IMG/VR virus record: IMGVR_UViG_3300029542_000004
Coordinates: 1-59,109 of that record
Length of the DNA stretch: 59,109 nucleotides
Direction: 5' to 3' (one strand)
Origin: a virus
Each line of letters starts with the position of its first letter. The stretch's first letter is position 1. Made by a program: the position numbers and the translations under genes. The notes beneath the pieces were generated by a model. It was not told the origin of the DNA. It did not search any database and saw nothing but the letters and a program-made list of their open reading frames with translations. Positions 16,165-46,486 of the stretch are shown here, one piece after another.

Positions 16165-16440
16165 TTACACCTCAATCAGAGTAAATTTTCGTTTTTTAAC
16201 AATTTTGTCTCCATGAAGCATTCCGTCTATGTCTCTGCCACACCCCATATTGATTGTGTCTACATCATATTTGCCTAAATACGCTTGATATTCTTTTCCG
16301 GCAATAGAAATAGTTCCAAGTGGATTTTTGTTTTCAAAACTTGCATTAAAGTCACTATAGTCATAAGGTGTACCACAATAAGGGCATTTATTAAGTTTTC
16401 TGTCAATCGGCGCGCCACAGTTCACACAATTTGTGTTCAT
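16165..16440 (-). CDS. Zinc-ribbon protein
   Basis: CVNCGAPI...CPYCGTPY at the N-terminus. Confidence 0.5.
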   Translation of the reverse strand: MNTNCVNCGAPIDRKLNKCPYCGTPYDYSDFNASFENKNPLGTISIAGKEYQAYLGKYDVDTINMGCGRDIDGMLHGDKIVKKRKFTLIEV

Positions 16441-16487
16441 TAGTTACTCTTCCTTTGCCTTAAAAAGTGTGTCAGGAAATGGAATAC

Positions 16488-16637
16488 CTAAAAATGCATA
16501 TTTGCGTACTTCCTAAATGTTGGTCTGCTCATGCCGGCCATTTTTGCAGCTTTCGATTGTGAACATCTGCCGTATGCGTATTCCGTTAATGCTTCTTGGA
16601 ATAGTTTGGCATTTCGTGTCTTAACTCCCTTTGCCAT
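16488..16637 (-). CDS. Small HTH protein (49 aa)
   Basis: Hand-translated as MAKGVKTRNAKLFQEALTEYAYGRCSQSKAAKMAGMSRPTFRKYANMHF. RBS AAGGAGA. Confidence 0.45.
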   Translation of the reverse strand: MAKGVKTRNAKLFQEALTEYAYGRCSQSKAAKMAGMSRPTFRKYANMHF

Positions 16638-16663
16638 AGAGACATCTCCTTATTTTTTGATAA

Positions 16664-16743
16664 TCGAATAGACAGGAATCGAACTTGTGACTCCCTCCGC
16701 TACCATTACCGCAGTGGGTTTCTCCCAACTGAACTACTATCCG
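16664..16743 (-). ncRNA. tRNA-like element with an aberrant anticodon arm
   Basis: Acceptor CGGATAG/CTATTCG, D-loop AGTTGGGA and T-arm ACAAG-TTCGATT-CCTGT are present. The anticodon region is 7 nt too long and does not form a standard 5-bp stem with a 7-nt loop. Confidence 0.35.
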
Positions 16744-17122
16744 AAAAGGCAAGATTCACTCCATCAAAAGGTTTCCCAAAACACATTACAGAATTTTGAA
16801 AGTGTCTTGCCCATTGCTTTCGGTCGCGCGTACCTACTAGCAACTTGTTTTTGTGTATTTTCTTTTATCTTCCGAAACCGCTCTATTGCGGACCGGCCAG
16901 CGTTACGCAACCGCTATTCAAGATATAACAGCTCACACTAAACCGACATATGATTGATGTGGTGTGGATTTGAACCACACATAAGCCGTGCACTGCTCAC
17001 ATTGGAGGGAATTGAACCCATAGGTAAAATCAACCATGCGTTTTTACTCGTTTACCTGTCTCCTGCCCATCTGTCACTTACCCTTTTGTATACACATCAA
17101 CAGTCAGCGTCATGCTGACTAA

Positions 17123-17205
17123 CGCCGACATCGTGACTCGAACACGAACAACATTTCTGTTGGATAGCTTAGCAAGCTACTGAAATACCTTTATCCCATA
17201 TCGGC
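17123..17205 (-). tRNA. tRNA-Ser (anticodon GCU)
   Basis: Acceptor GCCGATA/TGTCGGC, anticodon arm GTAGC-TTGCTAA-GCTAT, long variable arm CAACA-GAAA-TGTTG and T-arm TCGTG-TTCGAGT-CACGA. Confidence 0.75.
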
Positions 17206-17363
17206 AAGCGAGTGTTTTTTTACTTGGTTTCCACTCACCCAAGGATTTTTTAGTCAGCCGCAAGCGGCTCAATCCAGTTCCCTACGCTAGGTTTATCTAG
17301 AATATTAACTAGCGTCTGCATTTCTCTAATAAACGCCCTCGGAGTGTACTGGCAATATCACCA

Positions 17364-17438
17364 ATCGGCAAGGTTGGGAATCGAACCCACGACAAATCAG
17401 CTAATAGCCGACTGCTCTACCATTGAGCTACATGCCGA
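17364..17438 (-). tRNA. tRNA-like gene with apparent anticodon AUU and an irregular acceptor stem
   Basis: D-arm GCTC-AATGGTA-GAGC, anticodon arm GTCGG-CTATTAG-CTGAT and T-arm GTGGG-TTCGATT-CCCAA. The acceptor is TCGGCATG/CTTGCCGA, with a T-T mismatch and one extra base. Confidence 0.45.
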
Positions 17439-17681
17439 TAAACAAAACTAACCTAATAGCTCTGTTTAAGCAAAAAATACGAAAAATTTCATTAAAGGGA
17501 AGAACCCTTAATTGCAGAAATGATACTATGTAACAGTTAGTCGGCACCTTTAGGCAGGGACATGCGTTATGATTTTCTGTTGTTTATTGGTAGAGTGTTG
17601 CCCGGCTGTTTACCCGACTTGTATCTCACGCAACACCTTGTAGCTGCTACCATATCTTACGCTATATTTTATTTCTGCAAG

Positions 17682-17754
17682 CTGGCTTGATAGGACTCGA
17701 ACCTACAACTACTTGATTAACAGTCAAGTGTTCTACCTGTTGAACTACAAGCCA
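17682..17754 (-). tRNA. tRNA-Asn (anticodon GUU)
   Basis: Acceptor TGGCTTG/CAAGCCA, D-arm GTTC-AACAGGTA-GAAC, anticodon arm CTTGA-CTGTTAA-TCAAG and T-arm GTAGG-TTCGAGT-CCTAT. Confidence 0.85.
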
Positions 17755-18105
17755 ATAATGAGGGTGAAGTCTAAGGAGTGGCAACACCCTCCGGAGATAT
17801 AAATTTGTATGTGCTGTAGGAAAAGAACTAGGAAACCTACAGCAAAGGACATGTGAGGGATTGCACCCCACCTAAGACTCACTGATTTGAGTTGCCCTAG
17901 TTTAACAATTAATTAAAGGGGGTATATATGTCTACTCTGCCTATTACAGATGTCTTTACGACAGGTTGGTTTTCACGCTCGTGTATTGTGGGATTATACA
18001 CGATTAAACCCTCACGAGCCTTGTGACGGCTCTTAACAGCTTTCCGCTATGAGGGCGAAAGGAACTACTAAGTCCAATGTCGGGGGAACCAAGTAAAACC
18101 CCGAA

Positions 18106-18178
18106 CAGGGCATGTTGGATTTGAACCAACGAAATGCGGGAATCAAAATCCCGTGCCTTACCGCTTGGCGAATGCCCT
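18106..18178 (-). tRNA. tRNA-Gln (anticodon UUG)
   Basis: Acceptor AGGGCAT/ATGCCCT, D-arm GCC-AAGCGGTAA-GGC, anticodon arm CGGGA-TTTTGAT-TCCCG and T-arm GTTGG-TTCAAAT-CCAAC. Confidence 0.85.
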
Positions 18179-18180
18179 AT

Positions 18181-18339
18181 TTACTGCCACATGAAAGCTA
18201 TGGCAAGTATCTGACCAAGCATAATCTCAACGCAAGTGAGCATTGCGGTAGTATCGGTTTTTTGGTTTAATGCTGAACCTGCCACCCCCAACACAGTTAC
18301 TATCAGCCATACTGTTGTTGCGATTTTTAATACAAACAT
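18181..18339 (-). CDS. Small membrane protein (52 aa)
   Basis: Hand-translated as MFVLKIATTVWLIVTVLGVAG... RBS GAGGTG. Ends 3 nt before tRNA-Gln. Confidence 0.4.
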   Translation of the reverse strand: MFVLKIATTVWLIVTVLGVAGSALNQKTDTTAMLTCVEIMLGQILAIAFMWQ

Positions 18340-18342
18340 GAT

Positions 18343-18792
18343 TTACACCTCATTTTCTTTAAATACTGACTCAGCTATGCACGCAAGAACTAAAAACACT
18401 ATTGAGACTACCATTGAGCATCGGTCAGAAAAGAGTATTCCGTAAAACATACAAAATAAAATTATCCATGTATACAGGCCCTTAAGAAACATTGGCATGA
18501 ATTTATAAACAATCTTGTCGAAAATCTTCCATTTGCGCTTAGATTTAAGCTCACGAGCCTTATCCATGTACCACTCTGCCTTGCTCATATCCTCTGCTAC
18601 AGAACCTTTATGTCCGGCACGATATTCATACTTGTATGCAGTAATCTCACACCATTTAGCCACATCCTTAAGCCCGTAAATGTCAATCATTTCATCAATG
18701 CACTCTTTATGATTAGGCAAGTTATAGTGGCTAGGGTGATTTACCATATCCGAATTAATTTTGCTAGACTCAAATCCTGTTAATTTCATCAC
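18343..18792 (-). CDS. DUF3310-family protein with a C-terminal TM extension
   Basis: HPSHYN...ECIDEM...AYKYEYRAGHKG...DMSKAEWYM matches the DUF3310 pattern. Confidence 0.6.
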   Translation of the reverse strand: MMKLTGFESSKINSDMVNHPSHYNLPNHKECIDEMIDIYGLKDVAKWCEITAYKYEYRAGHKGSVAEDMSKAEWYMDKARELKSKRKWKIFDKIVYKFMPMFLKGLYTWIILFCMFYGILFSDRCSMVVSIVFLVLACIAESVFKENEV

Positions 18793-20719: not shown

Positions 20720-20949
20720 TCCTCTATTCTGAAAAATCCATTATCAATTTCCCCAACTTCTTTGTTGCCGTTGTAAAAATAAAAATCATCGGGGTCAAAT
20801 TGATATAGATTATATAGCGAGGTTTTGTTGGCAAGATATTTTTCGCCGTCTTTGCTAAGATAAAATTCTGTTACTTCGTTATCGATTGGACTAATTATTT
20901 TATCTCCATGCCTTAAGTTATCAAAACTCTCAATTTTTTTCCTACTCAT
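20704..20949 (-). CDS. Hypothetical protein
   Basis: ORF in operon orientation. Its C-terminus ..FRIEDCKED is paralogous to the next ORF's ..WRIEDCEEN. Confidence 0.45.
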   Translation of the reverse strand: MSRKKIESFDNLRHGDKIISPIDNEVTEFYLSKDGEKYLANKTSLYNLYQFDPDDFYFYNGNKEVGEIDNGFFRIEDCKED

Positions 20950-20975
20950 TTATATCTCTCCTTCCGGTTTCCACC

Positions 20976-21194
20976 TTAATTCTCTTCGCAATCCTCTATT
21001 CTCCAATTGGGCCTCATTCCTTGAGCTTCCCACACAAGATAATCTTTCATATCGTCAATATCTTCAATTTCCGCCCATTTGTCATGTTCCTCTTCAAACT
21101 CTGCGTTTGGTTCAAACCACGCTTTGACCTCTTCAAAGGTCTTTGGCTTACTATATTCGGCTCTGTTGTCTGCGTCAACTATTCTGTATTTCAT
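20976..21194 (-). CDS. Hypothetical protein
   Basis: ORF in operon orientation. It shares the RIEDCxE C-terminus with 20704-20949. Confidence 0.45.
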   Translation of the reverse strand: MKYRIVDADNRAEYSKPKTFEEVKAWFEPNAEFEEEHDKWAEIEDIDDMKDYLVWEAQGMRPNWRIEDCEEN

Positions 21195-21251
21195 ACTCTT
21201 TATACCTCCAATAAAATAAACTATTTCTTTGCTACGACATAACTATAACAT

Positions 21252-21669
21252 TTTGTGCCTTGTATGTCAATTACTTTTTTGTGCCTTATTTTAATATTTT
21301 TTCTTCGCGTTCTAATTTTTCCGCTACGGCTAATTTAATAAAATCGTTAGCACTGTATTTTAGGGCTTTAATTCTGTCTTTTGTGCCTTTAGCAAAGCGA
21401 CAGTTTACACGTTCAAATTTATCATCATATTTATAGTTGGCTTTTCTGCGTGCCTCTGTGGTCTTATATTCCATATGTTTTGTACCTCTTTCATCTATAT
21501 AGTTACATTCATTATATATTTTTGTGCCTTGTAAGTCAAGTAATAATAATTGCTTCTATATAATAGCGCTTTAAATATTTTTGTGCCTTGTATATATTGT
21601 ATAATAGTTTTATTGTTTTGTGCCTTACATTTTGTGTATTTTGTCAATTGTTTTGTGCCTTACATTTTG
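21252..21669. repeat. Six copies of TTTGTGCCTT flanking the RHH gene; candidate operators
   Basis: Copies start at 21252, 21278, 21521, 21580, 21617 and 21652. The last two sit inside a 23-nt direct repeat ATTGTTTTGTGCCTTACATTTTG (21612-34 and 21647-69). Confidence 0.6.
21286..21474 (-). CDS. Ribbon-helix-helix (Arc/CopG-like) DNA-binding protein
   Basis: 62-aa ORF. KFERVNCRFAKGTKDRIKAL fits a beta-strand followed by helices. Confidence 0.5.
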   Translation of the reverse strand: MEYKTTEARRKANYKYDDKFERVNCRFAKGTKDRIKALKYSANDFIKLAVAEKLEREEKILK

Positions 21670-21731
21670 ATATACTTTAGTCAAGTCGAAAGACAATGAA
21701 CAAAATAGTTTACAATATGGAGGTAAAAAAT

Positions 21732-21974
21732 ATGTTTGTATCAGTGAAAGACCTTACAGAAGCACTTGACCAGGATTTTATTTATCTTGCTGATGGTGTA
21801 GCGTCAAAAGAAGCGCACAGCAAAGAAGAGTTTGGCAAATGGCTGTCATATATTACCAATAAGATTAATAACAGGATTGAGAAATTAAAGCAAATCAGCA
21901 GTAGCGAAAAGCTAATTGCAAAATATGTTTGCAAAGCAAACAAACTAAAGGCGATGTGTTTGAAATCTGTATAG
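21732..21974 (+). CDS. Hypothetical protein (plus-strand island)
   Basis: The start is moved to the ATG at 21732, behind GGAGGTAAAAAAT. Confidence 0.45.
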   Translation: MFVSVKDLTEALDQDFIYLADGVASKEAHSKEEFGKWLSYITNKINNRIEKLKQISSSEKLIAKYVCKANKLKAMCLKSV

Positions 21975-22069
21975 CATAGCCGAAACGCTCCACCATGGAG
22001 CGCCCACCGCGGGGCGGTCGCCCGGCTCTGATGATGGCAGACCACAACGAAGAAAGCGAGGTTTTGAAC

Positions 22070-22294
22070 ATGAAAAAATATATTATGGTCGTAACGGATG
22101 AACAGATAAAGAGAAGCAAGGCACGCAGAAAAGCTGTCGAATCATTGGAGCATAACCCAATGTGTTACAACTGCAAGAGTTTCGGCAAGTCTTGCAATGG
22201 TTCAACAAATAAAATATATAGCGGATGTATCTATAAAGAGGTTGACGAATCGAAACCGTCTATATATGCACAGATTGCGGAACAAGTGAAATAG
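22070..22294 (+). CDS. Cys-rich hypothetical protein
   Basis: MKKYIMVV... with CYNCKSFGKSCNG...GC. The start is at the ATG after GAGG. Confidence 0.45.
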   Translation: MKKYIMVVTDEQIKRSKARRKAVESLEHNPMCYNCKSFGKSCNGSTNKIYSGCIYKEVDESKPSIYAQIAEQVK

Positions 22295-22381
22295 TCGAAA
22301 CAGCGGAATTTCCACCGTCTGCAGGAATTGCCCCACCTGCACCGATGAGACAGGGCGCGCAAAGAAAGGACGGTTGATTAT

Positions 22382-22657
22382 ATGACAAAAGCTGAACTAC
22401 TGAAAGAATTTGACAAACTGCAAAACGAAAAAGAAATACGCATTGAGGGCATACACTGCAATAGTAATAAAAGTACAATAAAAAATGCTATTGAGTGCCT
22501 AAAATGCCCGGATGAACTGTTAGAGAAATACTTAATGGTTGTAAGTCTCAAATATGAAAATATCGGGCGCACAATTGCAGAAAATGGAGACTTTAAGCGC
22601 CACTCTTTCAACCGGCTTTATGTATTTAATACAGCTAGACAGATTTTAGCAAATTAG
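22382..22657 (+). CDS. Hypothetical protein
   Basis: ORF in the plus-strand island. Confidence 0.45.
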   Translation: MTKAELLKEFDKLQNEKEIRIEGIHCNSNKSTIKNAIECLKCPDELLEKYLMVVSLKYENIGRTIAENGDFKRHSFNRLYVFNTARQILAN

Positions 22658-22677
22658 CATATCGGAGAGGACACAGC

Positions 22678-22770
22678 ATGAGAGATTTTATCGAGCTTTT
22701 AAAGGCTTTCGGGCTTTTCGTGTCATGCCTTGTTATTGGGTATGGCGGTTTGTTTTTATTTTTTTATTAG
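22678..22770 (+). CDS. 30-aa hydrophobic peptide (putative)
   Basis: Hand-translated as MRDFIELLKAFGLFVSCLVIGYGGLFLFFY. RBS GGAGAGG. Confidence 0.3.
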   Translation: MRDFIELLKAFGLFVSCLVIGYGGLFLFFY

Positions 22771-22783
22771 AGAGGTGGAGAAA

Positions 22784-22993
22784 ATGAAATACAATGAACC
22801 ATTAACAGAAGAATATTACGCAGAGCAAAAACGACTTTGGGACGAAATGAACAGTAGAAATAAAATTAACAATGCGTCAGTATTAACGAACGAGCAAAGG
22901 TTTGGAGTTCAAAATCCAATATTATCAAAAGAAGCAAGTTATTTTTTAGCATTAGGAGTAGCAAGGATTATAATTGATAAATTAGCAGAATAA
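22784..22993 (+). CDS. Hypothetical protein
   Basis: The start is at MKYNEPL, behind GAGGTGGAG. Confidence 0.45.
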   Translation: MKYNEPLTEEYYAEQKRLWDEMNSRNKINNASVLTNEQRFGVQNPILSKEASYFLALGVARIIIDKLAE

Positions 22994-23012
22994 GAGGATA
23001 TGCAACGTGAAT

Positions 23013-23033
23013 TATTATAATTCACGAGCTAAT
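23013..23033 (+). other. Perfect 9-bp hairpin
   Basis: CGTGAATTA-TTA-TAATTCACG, directly after the stop of 22784-22993. Confidence 0.5.
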
Positions 23034-23034
23034 A

Positions 23035-23094
23035 GCGATACTAATTAACATGGTGTATTTTAGCCGGTTCGAGTCCGGCTATTAGCTTTATATA
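23035..23094 (+). ncRNA. D-armless tRNA-like minihelix
   Basis: 7-bp acceptor GCTAATA/TATTAGC and a canonical T-arm GCCGG-TTCGAGT-CCGGC. Only 28 nt lie between them, forming the stem GATAC/GTATT with a 13-nt loop. Confidence 0.35.
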
Positions 23095-23399
23095 TAAGGC
23101 TTTTAAGGCCTTGTATTAATTAATTTAATATTTTTCATAGGTGCTTTTATATGGCTTTACGGCTGTATATATTGTACTCCGTCCGCGCGTCCGGTAAATA
23201 ATCGCGTCAAGAGGTCTTATAAATGCCTTTATATTTATATCAGGCTCAAGAGGTGCAACGCCTGAAAAAATAATTGTGCGCCCTTATAGGTGCTTTGCGT
23301 TATACACCTAATAAAAACAGATTAACGCACGCATGAACCGCGAGAAGGCCAAAAAGTAACATGTAAACCATGTACTAAAACAGAAAAGAGGGTTAATGA

Positions 23400-23669
23400 A
23401 TGGTCAACGAGCTAAAAAGCCTTGATGCTGTAGAACGTGAAATAAGAGCGCGCTACAATGGAAAATATACGAGCGCGCCGGAATATCAGGCAAGCGAGCG
23501 CGCCACACGTAAAGCAATAACGGACATTTTTAGAACTGTCGCAGAGTCGGGCACGTGTGACGATATTACCGCGCTTATTAGTGGCAAGGAATACCGCCGG
23601 ACGGCTTTCTCCAATTATCTACAGCATAAAAACTATATAAGCCCAATAATTAAGGCTTGTTATAGATAG
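23400..23669 (+). CDS. Hypothetical protein
   Basis: ORF with RBS AGAGGG. Locally richer in GC. Confidence 0.45.
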   Translation: MVNELKSLDAVEREIRARYNGKYTSAPEYQASERATRKAITDIFRTVAESGTCDDITALISGKEYRRTAFSNYLQHKNYISPIIKACYR

Positions 23670-23679
23670 GGGGTGTATT

Positions 23680-23934
23680 ATGTCTAATTATGAATACTTG
23701 GGGAAAAAAGAAATATATAAGCGAGTTCAGGCGCTAGGCTATGAAGTATCGAAAATAAGCGATTTTAATTATATCAAGTATGACTGCATAGAGTGGATGG
23801 AGTCGCACGAGTTAAAAATAACAGTTCAAAGATCCGGTGAATGGTTGCAAGTTGTCGAAAAGCGTGCGCACGTTCACCCGGTTACGCTTTTTTGCGACTA
23901 TCAAGCCGGGAAATATATCACGCGTTACCACTAG
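23680..23934 (+). CDS. Hypothetical protein
   Basis: ORF 10 nt after the previous stop. Confidence 0.45.
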   Translation: MSNYEYLGKKEIYKRVQALGYEVSKISDFNYIKYDCIEWMESHELKITVQRSGEWLQVVEKRAHVHPVTLFCDYQAGKYITRYH

Positions 23935-23955
23935 GGATATCTTATATCCCTTTTT
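23934..23955 (+). terminator. Intrinsic terminator of the plus-strand island
   Basis: GGGATAT-CTT-ATATCCC followed by TTTTT. Confidence 0.7.
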
Positions 23956-24080
23956 GCCGTGCCAAAAATCAAGTGCGCAGCCGTTGGAGCTGTCGCAAGT
24001 TGTCCGGCTATAAGTCCGGGTGCTGTCGTACATTGACAAATTAACAAAAATATTCTATGATTTTATGATATACACATTTA

Positions 24081-24216
24081 AAGCCGTGTATTTGAAGTTT
24101 TAAGGGCTTTTAAGCGTGCTAACGTGGATTTTATCGAGTGCGCTATAATAAGCCGTAAAACAAGCCGTTTACAACGCTTTGCGATATAGCTGTAGAGCTT
24201 TAAGCCGTCAAGCCGT
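24081..24216. repeat. Five copies of AAGCCGT in a non-coding stretch
   Basis: Copies at 24081, 24150, 24162, 24202 and 24210, read directly. Confidence 0.5.
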
Positions 24217-24410
24217 GCCGGGTGTGAGTTGTTACAAGTCAGGCACACCAACTCACGAAAAATGTTTGAATTTTCAGAAAACTTCACTCAATTAAAGCGT
24301 GGTGCGAGTTCTTTGCAAGTTCTCGACAAGTTTTTGTAAAATTTTGCAAACGGATTTTTGAAATCGAAAAATCTAAAAGGTACGGGGGTATCAAAATATT
24401 TTAGGATTTT

Positions 24411-24554
24411 TTAGGATTTTGAATTTTGAATTGCCAAAAAATAAATGCTCTTAGCACTGTAGTCGCTCTCTCCTAGCTTCTCAATCAATTTCTGCCGTGT
24501 CATTTCCGGATTAGTCCGGTGTATATATTCTAATAGCCTGTCTATTTTATCCAT
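24411..24554 (-). CDS. Small hypothetical protein (47 aa)
   Basis: The start is moved to MDKIDRLLEY, overlapping the upstream stop. Confidence 0.35.
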   Translation of the reverse strand: MDKIDRLLEYIHRTNPEMTRQKLIEKLGESDYSAKSIYFLAIQNSKS

Positions 24555-44530: not shown

Positions 44531-46486
44531 CTATACCTCCATATTTTCAATCACAAGCTCTTTGTCCTGTGTGTACTTTAACATAATCAACTGGTTATCA
44601 ATCTGTGGTATTCTCCAATCGTCAACGCTCTCTGTATCATCAATGATAATTGGAAAATTAACGTTTGCCGCTTTCTGAAAAGCTCGGCATATGTCAACTT
44701 CCGTTAACATCCTCGCACCATGATTGAGATTTCTCGCATATGCTTCACCATTGTAAACAAAGTCGCAGCACTCCTCGGTATCACCATTTAAGAGCGGTCT
44801 AAACAGCTTTGCTGTGGCAAAATTCAGATACTTATTAACATCAGCCTGTAAGAGTTCGTTTTTCTTACGTGTGAACTCTTTCAGCAAGTCAAGCTTTCTC
44901 TCCCAATCGGCTATCTCTTGATTGAGGTCTGTTCTCTTTGTCTCAAGGTCGGCTATGCTATCATCTATACGCTTGTTATTTGCCACACCAAGCTCAATCC
45001 TCGCATTAGTCGATGAAACTTGCCTTAACAGTTCGCTTCGCTCGTTTTTGAGTTTTCTGATAAGTTCTGATGTATCGTTTTCATCTGCAAGAGCTTTCTC
45101 CTTTTCCTCGATTTTAGCTTTAAGTGTCTGATACTCGCTGTTGCCTGTCATGTCAACATCAGTAGGTACTTTTCTAAGCTCTTTAGCAACAATGTCACAC
45201 TTTTCTGTCAGCTCCTTAAGCTCTACCCCAAGGTCAGCTATTTCTTTCTTTTTATCCTCAATAGCTTGTTTAAGCTCCTTGCTATCGTTTGACAGTGCAT
45301 TGCCCCTATCTTCAAGCTCTTTAAGGCTCTTTGCTTTTAGAGCGTCAAATTCGGCTCTTAAGACCTCCACCTTATCTTCCGGCAATCTCTGACCACACAT
45401 CGGGCAATTAACACTGCTTTCATCAAAGGAAAGTGCCTTTGCTTTTTTCCAGTCAGCACGTACCTTTGCTAAGTTCTCTGTGCAAAATCTAACCGAACCT
45501 TCAAAGTTTTCAATGTTAGCTTTTTTGGCTCTTATCATTGACTCTCCTTTGTGAATTGAAGCATTGAAGTCATCAAGCTGTGCCTGTAGCTCCATACGCT
45601 TTTTCTGATTGTCAGCATTGGCTTCTCTCTCCATGTCTGAAAGCTCAAATTTAAGGTTCATAATGTCCTCTGTAGCTTTCTGCTTGTCCTCTAAAATCTT
45701 GTTGTAGTCAGATAGCTTATCTTCAATTTCCTTAAGCTGTGGCTCATAGGTTTTCTTTTGTAATTCAAGCTCTGCAAGGTCTGTATACTCATTGGTGGAA
45801 TGGATTGTATCAATCCTCGTTGAGATTTCGTCTCTTTCCTTAATCAGTCCTTTACTACCGTTCCTACCACCTGTGCCGTTTAGCTTGCCACGACATACTT
45901 TTTTAAGCTGGTCTACACCGCCATCATCAAACATTGGCTTAAGTTCAGCGAACTGTGGAAACATATCGCAGATTTCTTCATCGGTACGTGTTCCAAAATA
46001 GCTTGCAAGTGCTAATCTCTGCTCTGCCTGTGACTTGTTAAGTAATGTCATGGAATTTAAGCAAAATGGTAATACTCCAAGCTCTGCCATGTTGTCATTG
46101 ATGTACTGATTGTAGTCTGCCATTTTGTAAGGCACATCATTGATTGAGTAATCAGTAACACTGCCTGTAATCTCACCCTTTTTGTTGCGTTTCTGCCTTG
46201 TAACCTTTTTCAGAGTCTTTGCTTTTCCGTCAATCTCAAAGGTAACAGCCCTCACAATGTCAACATCGTCAATCTCGACTCCGTTTTCATCGTGCGGTCT
46301 TATGCCTGTAATTTCTCTGTCATTCTCATCGTGGCAATTCAGCACATCAAGGATAATTCTCTTAACTGTTGATTTGCCGACTTCATTCTGACCGGACAAC
46401 ACAGTTTTCATTGAAAAATCTGTGTCTAATGTGTTTTTGCCATAGAATTTACAAAAATTCTGCGCAAATACGTGTGTAATCTTCAT
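44531..46486 (-). CDS. Rad50/SbcC-like AAA ATPase with coiled coil and zinc hook
   Basis: Walker A GQNEVGKST, a long coiled coil, a central CPMCGQ and a C-terminal IIIDDTES Walker B-like motif. Confidence 0.7.
   Translation of the reverse strand: MKITHVFAQNFCKFYGKNTLDTDFSMKTVLSGQNEVGKSTVKRIILDVLNCHDENDREITGIRPHDENGVEIDDVDIVRAVTFEIDGKAKTLKKVTRQKRNKKGEITGSVTDYSINDVPYKMADYNQYINDNMAELGVLPFCLNSMTLLNKSQAEQRLALASYFGTRTDEEICDMFPQFAELKPMFDDGGVDQLKKVCRGKLNGTGGRNGSKGLIKERDEISTRIDTIHSTNEYTDLAELELQKKTYEPQLKEIEDKLSDYNKILEDKQKATEDIMNLKFELSDMEREANADNQKKRMELQAQLDDFNASIHKGESMIRAKKANIENFEGSVRFCTENLAKVRADWKKAKALSFDESSVNCPMCGQRLPEDKVEVLRAEFDALKAKSLKELEDRGNALSNDSKELKQAIEDKKKEIADLGVELKELTEKCDIVAKELRKVPTDVDMTGNSEYQTLKAKIEEKEKALADENDTSELIRKLKNERSELLRQVSSTNARIELGVANNKRIDDSIADLETKRTDLNQEIADWERKLDLLKEFTRKKNELLQADVNKYLNFATAKLFRPLLNGDTEECCDFVYNGEAYARNLNHGARMLTEVDICRAFQKAANVNFPIIIDDTESVDDWRIPQIDNQLIMLKYTQDKELVIENMEV

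Follow-up and report, generated by a model that had tools for sequence, protein, structure and literature searches.

The DNA analyzed here is IMG/VR virus record IMGVR_UViG_3300029542_000004, positions 1 to 59,109 (the window; all coordinates refer to this whole stretch of 59,109 nt). It comes from a ~59-kb temperate siphovirus-like gut phage, whose genes read almost without exception from the minus strand, and Pfam identified an integrase, a C5 methylase, a terminase, an SPP1-type portal, a major capsid protein and a GH25 lysin. The tract under study (16638-18180) has the early/replication genes on one side and the packaging genes on the other. It is flanked by a gene for a 49-amino acid protein with sub-threshold helix-turn-helix (HTH) matches and by a hydrophobic 52-amino acid open reading frame (ORF) without annotation, in agreement with the small HTH gene and the small membrane gene read there by a first-pass annotation made from the sequence alone. 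That annotation had also described the tract as ORF-free and GC-rich, and this was borne out: the overlapping ORFs, listed on both strands, are all short, the majority being antisense to tRNAs or overlapping them, and the GC content is 41.6-43.6% in windows over 16500-18499, versus 31-39% for most neighboring windows. We show here that the tract is a one-strand mosaic island of tRNA genes and of conserved tRNA-derived or tRNA-associated structured RNA genes, among them a 57-nt junction RNA (motif 1) and a 146-nt tRNA-Leu-like RNA with a swappable centre (TL RNA).

ARAGORN detected five minus-strand tRNAs within the 1.5 kb of the tract. Four of them were recovered at the gathering threshold in the Rfam scan of the whole window, and the fifth reached 30.5 bits in a focused scan. 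The tRNAs, motif 1 with its adjacent element, and the TL RNA are located as follows:

18105-18179, minus strand: tRNA-Gln(UUG) (ARAGORN; Rfam tRNA model, 58 bits)
18057-18067, minus strand: CU-rich element UAGUUCCUUUC, which immediately precedes motif 1 and whose reverse complement reads as a Shine-Dalgarno (SD) sequence
18002-18058, minus strand: motif 1, the 57-nt junction RNA (covariation, covariance model and genomic context)
17681-17754, minus strand: tRNA-Asn(GUU) (ARAGORN; Rfam, 72.7 bits)
17365-17437, minus strand: paralog derived from tRNA-Asn, anticodon AUU, discriminator A (ARAGORN; Rfam, 42.5 bits)
17122-17206, minus strand: tRNA-Ser(GCU) (ARAGORN; Rfam, 46.2 bits)
16954-17099, minus strand: TL RNA, 146 nt, tRNA-Leu-like and without an anticodon arm (covarying acceptor, D and T arms)
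16663-16744, minus strand: class II tRNA-Leu(UAA) (ARAGORN; Rfam, 30.5 bits, barely over the threshold of 29)

With its clustered same-strand tRNAs in a genome that carries phage hallmark genes, the tract is a phage tRNA array. Of the first-pass reading, tRNA-Gln, tRNA-Asn and tRNA-Ser stood, whereas the count of three had to be raised to five by tRNA-Leu(UAA) and the AUU tRNA. The spacers between the five tRNAs measure 350, 243, 158 and 377 nt, and not the 100-350 nt given before.

Among GenBank phages only tRNA-level similarity to the tract was found, except in Dulem virus 39, which came from lemur faeces and is distantly related and syntenic. A neighboring 225-amino acid protein led to ~30 close relatives in IMG/VR, and three short DNA patterns to ~200 more contigs. 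At motif 1, a 58-nt block has 90% identity when the window is compared with Dulem virus 39, and two helices already show compensatory changes there. The 7-bp helix P1 (18056-18050 with 18014-18008) encloses a near-invariant unpaired strand of 17 nt, UAGYGGAAWGCUGUUAA (18049-18033), and the 5-bp helix P2 (18032-18028 with 18020-18016), which carries the loop GUCRCAA and is followed by a single G before the 3' strand of P1. In 44 distinct variants 93.4% of the cells pair and double-sided changes occur in 8/12 pairs, the weakest being the two outer pairs of P1. The covariation score was 0.401, versus 0.156 when shuffled (0/500 shuffles), and slid controls fell to 27-50% paired. The motif 1 covariance model (R1) found one copy in the window (83.3 bits, E = 6e-21), one in Dulem virus 39, and one each in 29/29 protein-selected relatives that cover the region. 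Across close relatives the motif is 95.7% identical.

Motif 1 was observed in 135 distinct contexts. The upstream gene was tRNA-Gln(UUG) in 119 of them, tRNA-Met in three, tRNA-Ser(UGA) in one and a UUA suppressor in one, and the distance from the called tRNA to motif 1 was 30-76 nt. The remaining 11 contexts have no called upstream tRNA; in the four of these that were read (L006, L121, L240 and L247) a T-arm-like sequence is found just upstream. Within the stretch scanned in the 135 contexts, 365 tRNAs neighboring motif 1 are on its strand and none is on the opposite one. Six copies are from prophages or metagenome-assembled genomes, assigned to Lachnospiraceae, Acetatifactor, Firmicutes CAG:882 and less reliably binned contigs; the hosts of other lineages that bear motif 1 are Clostridia.

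The wobble pairs of motif 1 tell the two strands apart. There are 18 G.U cells on the tRNA strand, from at least five independent changes, and none on the reverse complement. Such strand-asymmetric wobbles, in motif 1 as in the TL RNA, indicate selection on RNA and not on duplex DNA. They also bear on a rival explanation, namely that motif 1 is a riboswitch-like cis-regulatory leader on the plus strand that controls a mini-ORF or antisense transcription across tRNA-Gln. The complement does form the same P1/P2 junction before an SD sequence and a start codon, with the highly conserved joining strand beside the SD in the classic shape of a translational riboswitch. In the 45 nt upstream of motif 1, on the opposite strand, an SD-like sequence is present in 29/32 lineages, and an SD followed by ATG at 3-13 nt spacing in 17/32, versus ~1 in shuffles; in the window this site is 18015-18067 read on the plus strand. 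However, all 18 wobbles become A.C on the plus strand and none is reversed. The ORFs after the SD and ATG have 1-66 codons, are unconserved, run antisense through the upstream tRNA and include AUG-UAG start-stop pairs, and real opposite-strand genes were rejected on these grounds. The neighboring tRNAs (in the scanned stretch) and the flanking ORFs (by eye) are all on the tRNA strand, and no Rfam riboswitch matched on either strand. A cis-regulatory leader belongs to the 5' UTR of a conserved gene on its own strand, whereas here RNA genes follow on the tRNA strand and unconserved ORFs on the other. We consider a plus-strand leader quite unlikely. Two further roles of the CU-rich element were tried and rejected. 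One was a closing helix with the sequence downstream, for which RNAduplex, compared with shuffles, gave a z of +0.28 on average (31 lineages). The other was that the element, together with CAU, is complementary to a start region at another place in the locus, where no match with up to 7 mismatches in 30 nt was found.

The layout of motif 1 is that of a tRNA acceptor/T-arm minihelix, i.e., a 7-bp helix, the dinucleotide UA, and a hairpin of 5 bp and a 7-nt loop that abuts the 3' strand. Furthermore, some phage tRNA-Asn genes have, in their D-stem/anticodon half, 17 nt identical to its conserved strand. We regard tRNA mimicry by motif 1 as a lead, and not as a finding. A pseudoknot helix between an upstream CUUUC and the GAAAG of the conserved strand (helix A) was dropped: no covariation accompanies the A/U polymorphism of GGAA[A/U]G, and some lineages lack the helix, although it could form in the window. 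In the interval between tRNA-Gln and tRNA-Asn, CCCUCA-type segments (18056-18050, 17858-17852 and 17766-17760) and GAGGG-type segments (18014-18008, 17792-17786 and 17872-17866) were each seen three times by eye; in principle they permit alternative pairings, e.g., of the 5' strand of P1 with GGAGGGU at 17792.

By analogy with the theta ribozymes (PMC10879173), motif 1 might instead be a small ribozyme of a new self-cleaving kind, acting on the 3' trailer of the tRNA or on a polycistronic precursor. It is small, its covarying helices surround a nearly invariant unpaired strand, and it is located downstream of tRNAs; in its order of P1 5' strand, joining strand, hairpin, P1 3' strand and variable hairpin it is similar to the first half of the hepatitis delta virus (HDV) ribozyme fold, and these phages carry hammerheads, with RAGATH-27 and RtcB in relatives. 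Against this, no HDV-like, pistol, hatchet, twister or hammerhead model matched at E≤10, and motif 1 is 30-76 nt from the tRNA end, versus within 5 nt for theta ribozymes (PMC10879173). HDV-like ribozymes are nested double pseudoknots (P1-P1.1-P2-P3-P4) with a catalytic C in J4/2; by eye, no conserved P2 or P1.1 partner and no conserved C in the J4/2-equivalent position were seen, and the conserved strand sits where HDV-like ribozymes vary. Pistol-like and HDV-like topologies were rejected, since no conserved P2 partners were recognized by eye and the covariation of the hairpin contradicts the pistol P2 alternative. We consider a ribozyme very unlikely.

Elsewhere in the window, a type II hammerhead ribozyme was detected at 21978-22046 on the plus strand (55.2 bits, threshold 37), the sole hammerhead of the window; the surrounding ~3.8 kb (20733-24546) have no ORF of at least 100 amino acids, and the sign of the GC skew flips there. 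One or two such hammerheads are found in relatives (two in Dulem virus 39; also L005, L060 and L121). Within the tRNA array of Dulem virus 39 (L001) a RAGATH-27 RNA was detected at 46033-46116 (77.2 bits, threshold 76.1), flanked by a 213-amino acid ORF and a tRNA-Ser, with no counterpart in the window at E≤10. An int-alpA RNA (RF02996) is found in or near the arrays of two other motif 1 lineages (L036, 5890-5956, minus strand, 58.9 bits; L005, 936-1002, minus strand, 38.6 bits).

The second RNA, TL, was recognized from a 30-nt island (16953-16982) that is 100% identical in many relatives with unalignable flanks. Its acceptor stem is formed by UGAUGUG (17099-17093) with CACAUCA (16961-16955), followed by a discriminator A at 16954; the T arm (16980-16962) is GUGUGG-UUCAAAU-CCACAC, and the D arm of the window is UAC-AAAAGGGUAA-GUG. 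The centre, of ~90 nt, is variable and multi-hairpin. In relatives the conserved 5' half reads UGAUGUG-UG-GCGRAAUGGGUAAACGC, which has diverged in the window to UGAUGUG-UA-UACAAAAGGGUAAGUG, and the conserved 3' half reads GUGUGG-UUCAAAU-CCACAC-CACAUCA-A; between the halves lies a wholly variable centre of 30-190 nt. Among near-identical phages there are at least 10 classes of insert between identical halves. Minimum free energy (MFE) folds of 11 insert classes gave the T arm in all, the closing acceptor stem in 10/11 and the D hairpin in most.

Pairing of the acceptor was also seen in a search anchored on the D and T arms, i.e., with anchors that exclude the acceptor. The acceptor was paired at 7/7 positions in 43/44 in-register members and at 6/7 in the remaining one, and eight different acceptor helices, all complementary, were obtained. 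In 36 distinct half-pairs the acceptor was 99.6% paired, with 5/7 pairs changed on both sides, and the T stem was 99.5% paired; the covariation score was 0.461, versus 0.150 when shuffled (0/500 shuffles). The D stem covaried as well (GCG/CGC, ACG/CGU, GAG/CUC, GUG/CAC and CUG/CAG, with UGC/GCA read by eye). Covariation across related phages, which the first-pass annotation had proposed as a check, is thus present in both RNAs. The TL RNA also explains two of the three T-arm and acceptor modules that had been noticed as orphans: 16955-16975 is its T-loop and 3' acceptor strand, and 17000-17020 belongs to its variable centre. The modules noticed are real. The third is the T-arm-like hairpin 17853-17871, inside the conserved domain between tRNA-Gln and tRNA-Asn that is described below. 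A TL-type T arm is found downstream of motif 1 in 35/135 contexts.

The top half of TL is that of a canonical tRNA, with a 7-bp acceptor, a D arm with G18G19 and a T arm with a UUCRANY loop. Of the tRNA hallmarks, U1-A72 is invariant, U8, A14, and the GG and A21 of the D loop are present, and the discriminator is A in 45/55 members. In several loci TL begins 3-4 nt past the preceding tRNA, like adjacent tRNA genes. Among 362 distinct tRNAs of the collected loci, the best match to its D arm was tRNA-Leu (score 13, versus ≤8); class II tRNA-Leu has the D arm UGGCGGAAUUGGYAGACGC and the discriminator A73, but in TL U1-A72 replaces the usual G1-C72. TL is not an ordinary tRNA: it has no standard anticodon stem with a 7-nt loop, and it measures 146 nt versus 70-95 nt. 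The TL of the window was called by ARAGORN neither in standard nor in intron mode and was not hit by the Rfam tRNA model at E≤10, and no TL of any locus was called in standard mode. An intron-containing tRNA was rejected: the intron mode of ARAGORN called 3/30 variants, inconsistently, and no bulge-helix-bulge motif was found. A 114-nt class could be a tRNA-Leu(AAG/GAG) whose anticodon loop holds 14 inserted nt, a reading that does not extend to the other classes, which have no anticodon arm. No blastn match to TL was found in GenBank phages.

The AUU tRNA is variable in the same region of the molecule. Its homologues are 88-99% identical in the body, and their anticodons are AUU in 30 loci, AAU in 11, GUU in seven and AAC in two. 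Variable sites make up 12/17 positions of the anticodon arm versus 12/42 elsewhere (Fisher p = 0.004), and the pairing of the anticodon stem is retained through wobble or compensatory changes. Such an anticodon shift would alter or abolish the decoding identity of the paralog. In locus L215 (894-998, minus strand), a tRNA whose body belongs to the same family carries a 39-44-nt insert in the anticodon loop, which holds a T-arm-like GGUUCAAUUCC hairpin; it scores 49.3 bits with the Rfam tRNA model and was not called by ARAGORN in bacterial mode. The arrays of relatives also include an ochre-suppressor-type tRNA(UUA) (L013, 1521-1606; L036, tRNA-Stop, tta) and a tRNA(UCA) (L111, 4652-4723, tca) that ARAGORN labels SeC. 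The tRNA(UUA) and tRNA(UCA) are a hint that some phages of the group read through or recode stop codons.

The remaining structured elements of the tract are, on the same strand:

18080-18104, minus strand: 3' trailer hairpin of tRNA-Gln, UCGGGG...CCCCGA (MFE and centroid folds; 91.8% identity across relatives)
17979-18003, minus strand: lineage-variable hairpin past motif 1, UCGUGUAU-AAUCCCACA-AUACACGA (MFE fold, alifold)
17755-17978, minus strand: conserved multi-hairpin domain (identity, alifold, spacer z)
17438-17680, minus strand: spacer module with the Y-shaped helix GUGUUGC...GCAACAC (z = -1.68; in 5-16 collected loci)
17207-17364, minus strand: spacer module with a CUUG-loop hairpin and two more hairpins (z = -2.10; ~21 collected loci)
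17102-17120, minus strand: hairpin AGUCAGC-AUGAC-GCUGACU between tRNA-Ser and TL (fold)
16745-16953, minus strand: spacer module with a terminal long hairpin, GGGCAAGA...UCUUGCCU (~42 collected loci, 90% identity)

The ~230-nt multi-hairpin domain is the best-conserved DNA of the neighborhood: over ~73 distinct relatives, 17755-17975 is 96.2% identical, versus 92.8% for tRNA-Gln and 76.6-87.4% for the flanking genes. RNAalifold predicted a long-range closing helix, GAGCGUGAA (17980-17972) with UUCACCCUC (17768-17760), and within it several hairpins, a three-way junction, the T-arm-like hairpin 17853-17871 and a 9-bp hairpin at 17813-17843. For the tRNA-like junction 17845-17955, an alternative closing stem AAAGACAU/AUGUCCUUU was rejected, with A.C mismatches in six relatives; the preferred alifold stem is AGGGCA/UGUCCU. 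By eye, sub-elements of the domain, among them GUC(A)GUAAAGAC and GUGAAAAYCAACC, recur after motif 1 in other lineages, often with a TL RNA next. The hairpin after motif 1 differs in sequence among the lineages that were inspected by eye, several with an AUCCCAC loop. In 17438-17680 there is a seemingly conserved block AACAACAGAAAAUCAUAACGC...CGACUAACUGUU, with similar blocks seen by eye in L121, and the stem of the 17102-17120 hairpin reads GUCGG/CUGAC or GUCGG/CCGAC in relatives.

Of the helices paired by eye in the first-pass annotation, those that were re-read pair as listed there (16748-54/16805-11, 17102-08/17114-20, the CUUG hairpin 17253-66 and 17284-90/17309-15), and these, together with 17813-20/17836-43 and the helices of 17970-18030, returned in MFE folds. 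When the MFE of each spacer was compared with dinucleotide shuffles (100 for the Gln-Asn spacer), the Gln-Asn spacer gave z = -3.58, with 0/100 shuffles as good; the values of the other three (-1.68, -2.10 and -1.45) are suggestive only. The comparative evidence for structure in the spacers is much stronger than the thermodynamic evidence. We conclude that the spacers are conserved, structured, non-coding RNA, and neither filler nor ordinary tRNA-array spacers.

A contribution of small protein genes, or of a DNA-level element such as an origin, a pac site or an attachment site, to this conservation was considered, as there are short ORFs on both strands and the tract is upstream of the packaging module. 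The ORFs overlap tRNAs, however, and the Gln-Asn domain tolerates indels of 1, 4 and 7 nt among relatives that are 96% identical, which argues against coding; the strand-asymmetric G.U wobbles in turn indicate selection at the RNA level. The probability that we assign to proteins or DNA elements is negligible.

GOLLD and ROOL RNAs reside beside or around tRNAs in prophages, and the first-pass annotation had proposed, as one possibility, a large structured phage RNA of these classes. The tract shares with them the prophage setting, the proximity of tRNAs, the absence of ORFs and the GC enrichment. In addition, the ~310-nt interval from tRNA-Gln to tRNA-Asn is conserved as a block, with the predicted long-range closing helix. 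However, neither the GOLLD nor the ROOL model matched at the gathering threshold in the whole window, nor even at E≤10 in the tract region. The tract is modular and shuffled, and not a single fold of 400-800 nt. In ~80 close relatives the tRNAs and the spacer modules are present, absent or swapped independently, which argues against one large RNA, and the sequence that follows motif 1 differs markedly or is unrelated in the arrays of other lineages. Only the ~310-nt interval is inherited as a unit within the phage lineage. Hence, of the first proposal the conserved structured spacers were retained, and a single ornate RNA that spans the tract and encloses the tRNAs is largely refuted.

The same mosaicism bears on the explanation that the spacers are neutral debris, i.e., decaying tRNA pseudogenes, fragments and recombination scars, with only the ordinary tRNAs functional in codon supplementation. 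The array is highly mosaic among close relatives, tRNA-like fragments are nested within one another, the fold z-scores are weak for 3/4 spacers, and recombination rather than selection could keep the TL halves identical. Debris would not be expected to show compensatory changes in both helices of motif 1 and in the acceptor, D and T stems of TL across deeply diverged lineages, nor a 17-nt unpaired strand that is almost invariant. Moreover, spacer modules exceed tRNA-Gln and the neighboring genes in conservation, and the variable tRNA keeps the pairing of its anticodon stem. We therefore judge this explanation unlikely.

In at least 20 relatives a gene for the RNA ligase RtcB is located 3-4 kb downstream of the tRNA array (48460-49665 in L001; also L014, L061, L081, L108, L091, L113 and others). 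Upstream of tRNA-Gln and motif 1, a small Zn-ribbon-like protein (...GKEIxDECxxCGxxLxCELFxxGHGI...ERxNVxEM) is apparently recurrent in diverse lineages (L006, L012, L015, L053, L055, L057 and L060), as judged by eye from the first 40 residues. MazG-like (MTGNEYQ...) and DUF3310-like ORFs were seen by eye in the same position in several lineages, and DUF3310 was confirmed at 18343-18792 of the window.

In Rfam 15, no GOLLD, ROOL, ribozyme, riboswitch or small RNA family matched 16400-18400 on either strand at E≤10; the ribozyme models covered pistol, hatchet, twister, twister-sister and hammerhead. The full-library check proposed in the first-pass annotation thus yielded nothing beyond tRNA in this region. 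Two near-hits were at chance level: YrlA (22.9 bits versus a threshold of 69), over tRNA-Asn, and a 13-nt fragment of transfer-messenger RNA (tmRNA; 10.6 bits). No tmRNA was called by ARAGORN; a tmRNA combines a tRNA-like domain that has G3.U70 with a tag reading frame and pseudoknots, whereas TL has A3-U70.

The locus is of a known kind, that of phage tRNA clusters with extra tRNA-like RNAs, such as T4 species 1 and 2 or YrlA. The tRNA region of phage T4 encodes species 1 and species 2 RNAs, which are small stable non-tRNA RNAs. As in T4, tRNAs and extra structured RNAs share one cluster here and would be co-transcribed, and the extra RNAs have tRNA-like ends at which the tRNA machinery could process them. 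They have neither sequence nor fold in common with those of T4, they include a recurrent 57-nt junction and a tRNA-Leu-like scaffold with cassette-like centres, and they belong to phages of gut Clostridia.

YrlA, a bacterial and phage Y-RNA-like RNA, is a tRNA mimic that is often encoded near RtcB (PMC4201824). As in TL, the acceptor, D and T arms are mimicked and the anticodon stem is replaced by another module, and the association with RtcB is found here in relatives. Unlike TL, which has the normal tRNA topology, YrlA is circularly permuted, ends in a Ro-binding stem and has an acceptor closed by a loop; no Ro/Rsr gene was seen. The theta ribozymes, which are minimal HDV-like ribozymes, are found within 5 nt of gut-phage tRNAs (PMC10879173). 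They too are small structured RNAs downstream of tRNAs in gut Caudoviricetes infecting Bacillota (PMC10879173), and some of the associated tRNAs are suppressors, as relatives here carry tRNA(UUA). Motif 1 differs in its distance of 30-76 nt from the tRNA, in having no match to the HDV family, and in a joining strand without an HDV counterpart.

In non-canonical tRNAs such as allo-tRNAs and tRNA-Sec, the variable arm is long and the acceptor/T branch is of the 8/4, 9/3 or 8/5 type (PMC5389517). The branch of TL is likewise unusual (7/6, 13 bp), its D arm resembles that of class II tRNAs, and its "variable" region is very long. Allo-tRNAs retain a 7-nt anticodon loop and decode, whereas most TL variants have no recognizable anticodon stem-loop, and their centres are mutually unrelated. 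Finally, phage tRNAs with changes in the anticodon loop evade anticodon nucleases (PMC10264068; PMC11464382). Like these, the AUU family concentrates its variation in the anticodon loop and stem and conserves its body; the nuclease-evading tRNAs change at loop positions beside an unaltered anticodon, whereas here the anticodon itself shifts from GUU to AUU, AAU and AAC. More generally, phage tRNAs counter defences that cleave tRNA, among them defences that cut tRNA-Tyr in its variable loop or take off anticodon arms (PMC10264068, PMC11555353, PMC11464382, PMC13096335, PMC12445682).

The best explanation of the whole is that the tract is a read-through, RNase P/RNase Z-processed island of tRNA and tRNA-mimic genes, plausibly aimed at host defences that target tRNA; we put its probability at about 0.5. 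Promoter-like and terminator-like sites in the tract are at chance level, which suggests that the island would be transcribed by read-through from the upstream genes. Host RNase P and RNase Z would then cut each tRNA-shaped top half, i.e., those of the tRNAs, of TL and perhaps of motif 1, releasing the tRNAs and stable tRNA-mimic RNAs. Judging from the shape of the RNAs, such processing is probable. As for function, the Gln, Asn, Ser and Leu tRNAs may add to the host tRNAs or take their place. The Asn paralog with its variable anticodon, and TL and motif 1, which have no anticodon, might be substitutes that resist nucleases, or else decoys or sponges, directed at host enzymes that recognize tRNA shape; these would be defence nucleases that cleave the anticodon or variable arm, or acceptor-end toxins. 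This assignment of roles is tentative, possible more than probable. A defence role would explain why variation is focused in the anticodon/variable region of molecules with a constant top half, and why RtcB is frequent 3-4 kb downstream in relatives.

Several observations weigh against this explanation. The strong opposite-strand SD and ATG signal beside motif 1 is not accounted for by it. Motif 1 (18002-18058) is not detected by the Rfam tRNA model at E≤10, and its P2 loop, GUCRCAA, is not a canonical T-loop. Part of the TL set was gathered with a filter for acceptor complementarity, a bias that the anchor-only search mitigates and does not remove. In the Gln-Asn domain, alifold gave no double-sided covariation, and one-sided, mostly wobble-preserving changes, because the relatives are too similar. 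RtcB was not found in the window (best tblastn E = 0.8). The argument for processing is drawn from RNA shape, and the phage has no known host or defence system. Finally, classical codon supplementation suffices for the four ordinary tRNAs, with no need for a defence story.

Motif 1 is apparently undescribed, and neither motif 1 nor TL has a match in Rfam 15; they may already be among the ~10,000 candidate viral structured RNAs of PMC10690425, under anonymous identifiers. A bolder proposal is that gut Clostridia phages have a hitherto unrecognized class of tRNA-scaffolded, cassette-like RNAs. In it, TL RNAs, possibly leucylatable, would hold a hypervariable centre within a constant tRNA-Leu-like top half with the invariant U1-A72 and, as a rule, A73, and would be accompanied by motif 1; both would be excised by the tRNA machinery and act as decoys, sponges or regulators against host immunity that targets tRNA. 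Alternatively, motif 1 might represent a ribozyme class or a ligand-sensing class that is new. We consider this proposal rather unlikely.

Phage tRNA clusters are now seen as counter-defence tools besides codon supplements, and this island suggests that they include non-decoding tRNA mimics too. The combination of a constant scaffold with a swappable centre, and of a tRNA whose anticodon arm evolves fastest, points to selection on the region that host nucleases cut. Standard annotation overlooks such RNA genes and labels the region empty. Motif 1 and TL are two RNA families supported by covariation and absent from Rfam 15 and, at the sensitivity of blastn, from GenBank phages. They are common in phage contigs from human and animal gut and in Lachnospiraceae prophages, and their processing, aminoacylation, self-cleavage and anti-defence activity are therefore directly testable.

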